From Escherichia coli (GTDB lineage: Bacteria > Pseudomonadota > Gammaproteobacteria > Enterobacterales > Enterobacteriaceae): DNA of 64,000 bases. The stretch's first letter is position 1. Each line of letters begins with the position of its first letter. The stretch lies in assembly GCF_003334305.1 (NCBI RefSeq), contig NZ_QOWS01000012.1, one strand, 5' to 3'. Under the pieces are notes generated by a model. It saw only the letters and a program-made list of their open reading frames with translations, was not told where the DNA came from and ran no database searches. The position numbers and the translations under genes were made by a program. This document shows, piece by piece, positions 63,253-63,278 of this stretch.

Positions 63253-63278
63253 TTATACGTCTGGATGTCTAAACTAGC
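63253..63278. promoter_or_regulatory. Candidate tandem MetJ boxes just upstream of metC
   Basis: atACGTCT GGATGTCT resemble tandem 8-bp AGACGTCT metbox repeats (6/8 each). Confidence 0.4.

Follow-up and report, generated by a model that had tools for sequence, protein, structure and literature searches.

What acts on metC at its divergent junction with exbB, and is the pair of short repeats just before the metC start codon a binding site of the repressor MetJ? The repeats lie near one end of the window, by which we mean the whole 64-kb (64,000-nucleotide) stretch of Escherichia coli DNA analysed here. Here the window carries E. coli chromosomal DNA: of 5426 complete E. coli genomes, 5423 match a 501-bp query centred on the repeats, with metC and exbB as the underlying annotation and at least 95% identity to nearly all of the genomes. 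The window runs opposite to the K-12 coordinates, in which metC (b3008, 395 aa) is annotated at 3152236..3153423. Based on the sequence and the alignment to K-12, metC (MADKKLD...) begins with the ATG at 63234-63236 on the minus strand; exbB begins with the GTG at 63488-63490 on the plus strand, as its sequence and the K-12 annotation indicate. The first-pass annotation, made from the letters alone, had put a divergent exbB start about 250 bp away, and the GTG at 63488 is indeed 251 bp from the metC ATG. This 251-bp spacer has the same length in K-12.

The sole difference from K-12 MG1655 across the aligned 320 bp (spacer plus flanks) is at 63237, position -1 of the metC ATG, where a G on the metC strand stands in place of the C of MG1655. 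The mechanical list of open reading frames runs metC up to a TTG at 63371 (62049-63371, minus strand, 440 aa); we rejected this frame, which passes through the operator and promoter, as an ORF-calling artefact, the real start being the ATG at 63236. All eight RefSeq E. coli genomes listed name exbB "tol-pal system-associated acyl-CoA thioesterase", while the K-12 record names the product "Ton complex subunit ExbB", and the RefSeq name looks like a propagated misannotation. The metJ gene (b3938 in K-12) is outside the 64-kb window. Searching 63100-63620 against Rfam with a cut-off of E ≤ 1 returned zero RNA families, and a riboswitch or sRNA reading of the spacer was dropped on that result.

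The plus strand at 63255-63270 reads ATACGTCTGGATGTCT, that is ATACGTCT followed by GGATGTCT, or AGACATCC followed by AGACGTAT on the metC strand. The two 8-mers abut without a spacer and resemble the metbox consensus AGACGTCT. Metbox 1, which is promoter-distal in the metC sense (AGACATCC, minus strand, 63263-63270), matches the consensus at 6 of 8 positions and scores 8.96 bits; metbox 2, the ATG-proximal one (AGACGTAT, minus strand, 63255-63262), matches at 7 of 8 and scores 9.96 bits. Counted from the A of the ATG at 63236, the pair occupies -19 to -34, leaving a gap of 18 bp. The first-pass annotation was right that tandem metbox-like repeats precede metC, although some of its details need correction: it gave both boxes 6 of 8 matches, which is true for GGATGTCT and one too few for ATACGTCT; it placed them 17-25 bp upstream of the ATG; and its interval, 63253-63278, is broader than the actual site.

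The scores come from a MetJ scan with the half-metbox information matrix and thresholds of Augustus and Spicer (2011, PMC3228920), under which a box needs at least 3.15 bits, a quarter of what the consensus scores, and an array no less than the 12.58 bits of the consensus itself. With this matrix the metC pair sums to 18.92 bits (mean 9.46 per box), passes the thresholds and ranks top in the 64 kb, so the matrix scan that the first-pass annotation had called for finds a significant MetJ site here rather than none. The published location criterion for metbox arrays is a distance of at most 75 bp from a start codon, and the metC operator, 18 bp from the ATG, falls inside that distance and in the 5' region of a methionine gene. 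As a control, the same code gave 18.92 bits for K-12 metC and 31.18 bits, over four boxes, for the metJ/metB operator. The published values are 18.92 and 31.2 bits (PMC3228920), and we consider the implementation validated because both were reproduced. The flanking in-register 8-mers score negatively (-8.7 and -9.4 bits); the array therefore has exactly two metboxes, and a third one at E. coli metC was rejected on these scores.

Such a pair is rare. The metC site is the sole match in 64 kb to the double consensus AGACGTCTAGACGTCT with at most three mismatches, where 0.08 are expected. Sites of at least 18.92 bits arose at 0.004 per window in 500 dinucleotide-preserving shuffles, and the analytic expectation for a pair of this score is 0.011 per 64 kb. 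The only other pair above the thresholds (ATATGTTTGGCCGTCT, 52071-52086, 13.97 bits) is within the plsC coding sequence; it was rejected as an operator on account of that position and of its chance-level score, 0.73 such pairs being expected per window.

The site is also the one described before in K-12. Table S1 of Augustus and Spicer (2011, PMC3228920) lists for b3008 metC the operator "agacatccagacgtat" as a two-metbox site that scores 18.92 bits at a gap of 18, and the 16-mer, score and gap in the window are identical to it. In that study a metC-exbB spacer fragment was gel-shifted by MetJ with AdoMet, and 400-bp upstream fragments fused to lacZ were assayed in the wild type and a metJ deletion; repression of metC in vivo is implied, the metC ratio being given in a figure only, and the divergent exbB was not under MetJ control in vivo (PMC3228920). 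PMC12188003 cites derepression of E. coli metC by a metJ mutation. Sequence, score, rarity, conservation and identity with the published operator were computed here, whereas MetJ binding, repression in vivo and the role of SAM as corepressor are taken from the literature. Taken together, 63255-63270 is almost certainly the operator through which MetJ acts on E. coli metC, and with two contiguous metboxes it is an array of minimal size. MetJ/SAM repression of metC, as proposed in the first-pass annotation, is thus supported by the matrix score, the rarity of the site, the published operator, the gel shift and conservation.

We profiled the operator across species by using a degenerate DNA pattern for an 11-residue MetC motif, which gave 120 loci in species-representative genomes; the metC start was placed in 118 of them and the 300 bp upstream were scanned. 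A passing site was found in 34 of the 36 Enterobacteriaceae species, always 13-22 bp from the ATG. Among the genera with a site are Citrobacter, Enterobacter, Kluyvera, Lelliottia, Pluralibacter, Pseudocitrobacter, Cedecea, Siccibacter, Kosakonia, Phytobacter, Pseudescherichia, Shimwellia, Mangrovibacter and Entomohabitans. Four of five Serratia likewise had a passing site, made up of two or three metboxes (e.g., AAACGTCTGGATGGCT; loci L021, L034, L043 and L061) and placed 60-73 bp from the metC ATG; with none in the other Yersiniaceae sampled, an independent gain or a relocation of MetJ control is suggested. No site was detected within 300 bp upstream of metC in 24 Erwiniaceae, 8 Pectobacteriaceae, 6 other Yersiniaceae, 20 Pasteurellaceae, 8 Vibrionaceae or 7 Orbaceae. 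Altogether, the 33.7 kb scanned held 38 sites, with about 0.4 expected by chance. One record, "Enterobacter cancerogenus strain M004" (L109), shares an identical MetC N-terminus (MATNKIDTTLVSAGR) with Pantoea sp. Mb-10 (L056) and is without the Enterobacteriaceae metC operator; it may be taxonomically mislabelled and was counted among the Erwiniaceae.

These counts bear on whether the pair could be a chance match with no function. Neither box is a perfect match on its own (7/8 and 6/8), and a 4.6-Mb genome would be expected to hold about 0.8 such pairs of equal score by chance. The relevant space is far smaller, with 4e-5 such pairs expected in the 251-bp spacer; the site precedes a methionine-biosynthesis gene, is kept across nearly all Enterobacteriaceae species scanned and has published experimental support. 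A functionless match is thus scarcely credible, being effectively refuted by the conservation and binding data.

The 34 orthologous upstream regions and the window were aligned with MAFFT, giving 35 sequences. Identity to the window is 92.5% over the 16 columns of the operator, versus 52.5% for the upstream flank and 56% for the stretch to the ATG. Box 1 is invariant at positions 2, 3, 4, 6, 7 and 8 and has A or G at positions 1 and 5; box 2 is invariant at positions 1, 2, 3 and 5 and varies at positions 4 (C/T), 6 (T/G), 7 (A/T) and 8 (a single T/C). The substitutions are mostly at positions that the matrix tolerates, the main exception being the T-to-G change at position 6 of box 2, which carries a moderate matrix penalty and occurs in 7 of the 35 sequences. 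The likely Shine-Dalgarno sequence of metC, assigned from its sequence as AGGA at 63245-63248 on the minus strand (-12 to -9), has its cAGG conserved in the same alignment.

Conservation spills past the boxes, into GTTT on the 5' side and AAAAA on the 3' side, so constraints on the promoter or the 5'-UTR may account for some of the footprint. A stronger version of this idea is that the conservation belongs altogether to the metC core promoter, the 5'-UTR or translation signals (TATAAA and an A-rich tract), and that the likeness to metboxes is incidental. The extension of the conserved block beyond 16 bp, into GTTT and ATAAAAA, would fit, as would the TATAAA over box 2, a 5/6 match to the -10 hexamer. 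With TATAAA as the -10, however, the mRNA would start about 9 nt before the ATG and lose its Shine-Dalgarno, and we rejected it as the metC -10 for that reason. Moreover, the score is far above chance with an independent matrix, the substitutions obey metbox tolerances (A/G at positions 1 and 5), and both MetJ binding and MetJ-dependent control of metC have been reported. The Serratia pair, found at another distance from the ATG (60-73 bp), points to selection for MetJ control as such. We consider an incidental likeness very improbable, and return to the pair as a MetJ operator.

Where the promoter lies relative to this operator determines how MetJ would act. Under strict settings, a scan for sigma-70 promoters and terminators gave zero matches in the spacer, and no metC TSS was found in the supplement text searched from Kim 2012, Mendoza-Vargas 2009 and Ettwiller 2016. 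A lenient promoter scan has among its candidates an extended -10, TGcTAGTTT, at 63271-63279 on the minus strand, directly adjoining metbox 1. All 35 aligned sequences keep its TG, its TA and its final T. The invariant TGnTAnnnT next to the boxes has the signature of an extended -10, and from it we infer the position of the metC promoter. In the Cedecea/Entomohabitans group, an additional 6-9 bases lie between the -10-like element and the two core boxes, and these form a third metbox; since the extra spacer DNA is itself a metbox, the array appears tied to the TGnTAnnnT -10.

With SAM plentiful, two MetJ dimers (ribbon-helix-helix), one per box, would bind cooperatively. The array would extend from just past the extended -10 to 18 bp before the ATG, covering the likely TSS and the initial transcribed region; a TSS about 7 nt past the -10 would be within the boxes and would be occluded by the SAM-loaded dimers. 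Bound MetJ would then exclude or trap RNA polymerase, and less cystathionine beta-lyase would be made when methionine and SAM are sufficient. Because the promoter position is itself inferred, this occlusion geometry is put forward only as the probable mode of repression. The exbB promoter, about 190 bp away, would be under separate Fur control and unaffected by MetJ.

A second -10-like element lies further upstream. The putative TGcGAAAAT, at 63325-63333 on the minus strand (-97 to -89), came top of the lenient promoter scan and overlaps a perfect 10-bp palindrome, GAAAATTTTC, at 63321-63330; the palindrome, 85-94 bp upstream of the metC ATG, is within a conserved block, AAAATTTTCTGCTTTAT. If the main TSS, at about -82, were served by TGcGAAAAT, MetJ bound at about +49 to +64 would be a roadblock to elongation. 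As a promoter the upstream element has the better scan result, an extended -10 with a -35 of AAGTCA at a 16-bp spacer, and its nAnnAT hexamer pattern is kept in 21 species, with Escherichia, Citrobacter, Enterobacter and Kluyvera among the genera. However, no conservation of it can be recognised in the Cedecea/Siccibacter/Shimwellia group, where the operator is retained, whereas the TGnTAnnnT adjoining the boxes is invariant in 35/35 and coupled to the array through the third metbox where the spacing shifts. The metboxes of metF, too, overlap a -10 region. A roadblock to transcripts from the main metC promoter is therefore unlikely, and occlusion at the adjoining -10 is preferred. The palindrome GAAAATTTTC may belong to a second promoter of metC, to an UP element or to the site of a transcription factor; were it a second promoter, MetJ would act as a roadblock for its transcripts.

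In its architecture the metC operator is like the other arrays of the met regulon, having abutting 8-bp repeats similar to AGACGTCT, passing the same thresholds and lying near the start of a methionine gene. The operators compared were those of metA, metBL/metJ, metE/metR, metF, metK, metNIQ, mmuPM and ybdH/mtnE, and metC is a listed member of that MetJ operator set. It is minimal with its two boxes; in the same table, metN, metK and metE/R have three, and metB/J, metF, metA and mmuP have four. Its score per box is nevertheless high (mean 9.46 bits). MetJ control is less widespread at metC than at metB; in our scan it is confined to Enterobacteriaceae sensu stricto and, at a different distance from the ATG, Serratia.

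Crystal structures of MetJ are available in the PDB (1cma and the 1mj2 series), of which 1cma is the complex with a two-metbox operator. Somers and Phillips reportedly described in 1992 two MetJ dimers on two-metbox DNA. MetJ binds as two dimers per two metboxes, with SAM as corepressor. The two-dimer stoichiometry of the MetJ-operator crystal is the one expected at metC. The crystal DNA is, however, the perfect consensus AGACGTCTAGACGTCT, whereas the metC site has three mismatches, and its box junction reads C then A rather than T then A.

The divergent gene has a different regulator. The Fur box expected near exbB, which the first-pass annotation could not place with confidence, is at about 63400-63430 on the plus strand (GCAAATAGTAATGAGAACGACTATCAATTCG), where a published gel shift and conservation coincide. 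The top spacer match to GATAATGATAATCATTATC is AGTAATGAGAACGACTATC at 63406-63424 (13/19), with others 6 bp to either side (63400 and 63412). The window holds 36 matches of at least 13/19, counting both strands and palindromic sites twice, and the box was hard to place by reading because a 13/19 match is not significant alone in a window of this size. Chen et al. (2007, PMC2189734) reported a gel-shifted Fur cluster at exbB with three sites over 31 bp, the strongest at 19.1 bits, with its centre 70 bp before the start codon of exbB, which corresponds to about 63418 in the window. Across 29 Enterobacteriaceae species the block AAATA(G/C)TAATGAGAACnACTATCAATTCG hardly varies. The -10 element of exbB, GATATTAT, at 63441-63448 on the plus strand, is given in the supplement of Mendoza-Vargas et al. 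(2009) and conserved in the alignment; the TSS, 32 nt before the start codon (Mendoza-Vargas et al. 2009), falls at about 63456. Relative to this TSS the Fur cluster spans about -56 to -26, covering the -35 region and so part of the core promoter of this iron-uptake gene, while the metboxes are 186-201 bp upstream of it, a distance that fits the reported absence of MetJ control of exbB.

Other parts of the spacer are conserved or have been linked to regulators. At 63358-63386 on the plus strand there are three GNAAA pentamers with 10-bp spacing (GTAAAcgcaaGGAAAagaaaGCAAA). GTAAA-N5-GGAAA (63362-63376) is conserved, resembles a CpxR box and adjoins a less conserved published CpxR prediction. 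Zhao et al. (2022, PMC9600279 supplement) predicted a CpxR site, GGAAAagaaaGCAAA, and called metC and exbB Cpx-responsive; in our alignment conservation falls on the upstream half, CTGCGTAA(A/G)CGCAAGGAAA at 63358-63376, and not on the 3' pentamer of that prediction. In their expression data metC was also down in a cpxR deletion (PMC9600279), so any CpxR dependence is tentative. Read as a PurR, TyrR, MetR or FNR site, 63358-63376 gave no convincing match to the respective consensus; only the CpxR pentamers fit. Grainger et al. (2007, PMC1802558) found a previously unknown FNR ChIP-chip peak in the exbB/metC spacer, reported with no site sequence. Its K-12 coordinate (U00096.2, 3,150,195) corresponds to about 63299 in the window, and no good match to TTGAT-N4-ATCAA was seen by eye near that position. 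That the spacer carries further conserved regulatory inputs beyond MetJ and Fur, by way of GAAAATTTTC, the CpxR-like block and the FNR peak, is a tentative suggestion that we would hold with some doubt.

The metC metbox pair is already known, and the metboxes themselves yield no novel reading; the operator opens no new question. The value of the analysis is in the correct annotation of an experimentally supported repressor site, with its exact coordinates and match counts, and the site was recognised by reading the letters alone, without tools. Augustus and Spicer (2011, PMC3228920) found metC metboxes in 81 of 119 Enterobacterales, a share also put there as only about half. Our survey independently reproduces the published picture, in which MetJ control of metC is largely limited to the Enterobacteriaceae, Serratia having its site at another position, and metC does not belong to the core of the MetJ regulon.
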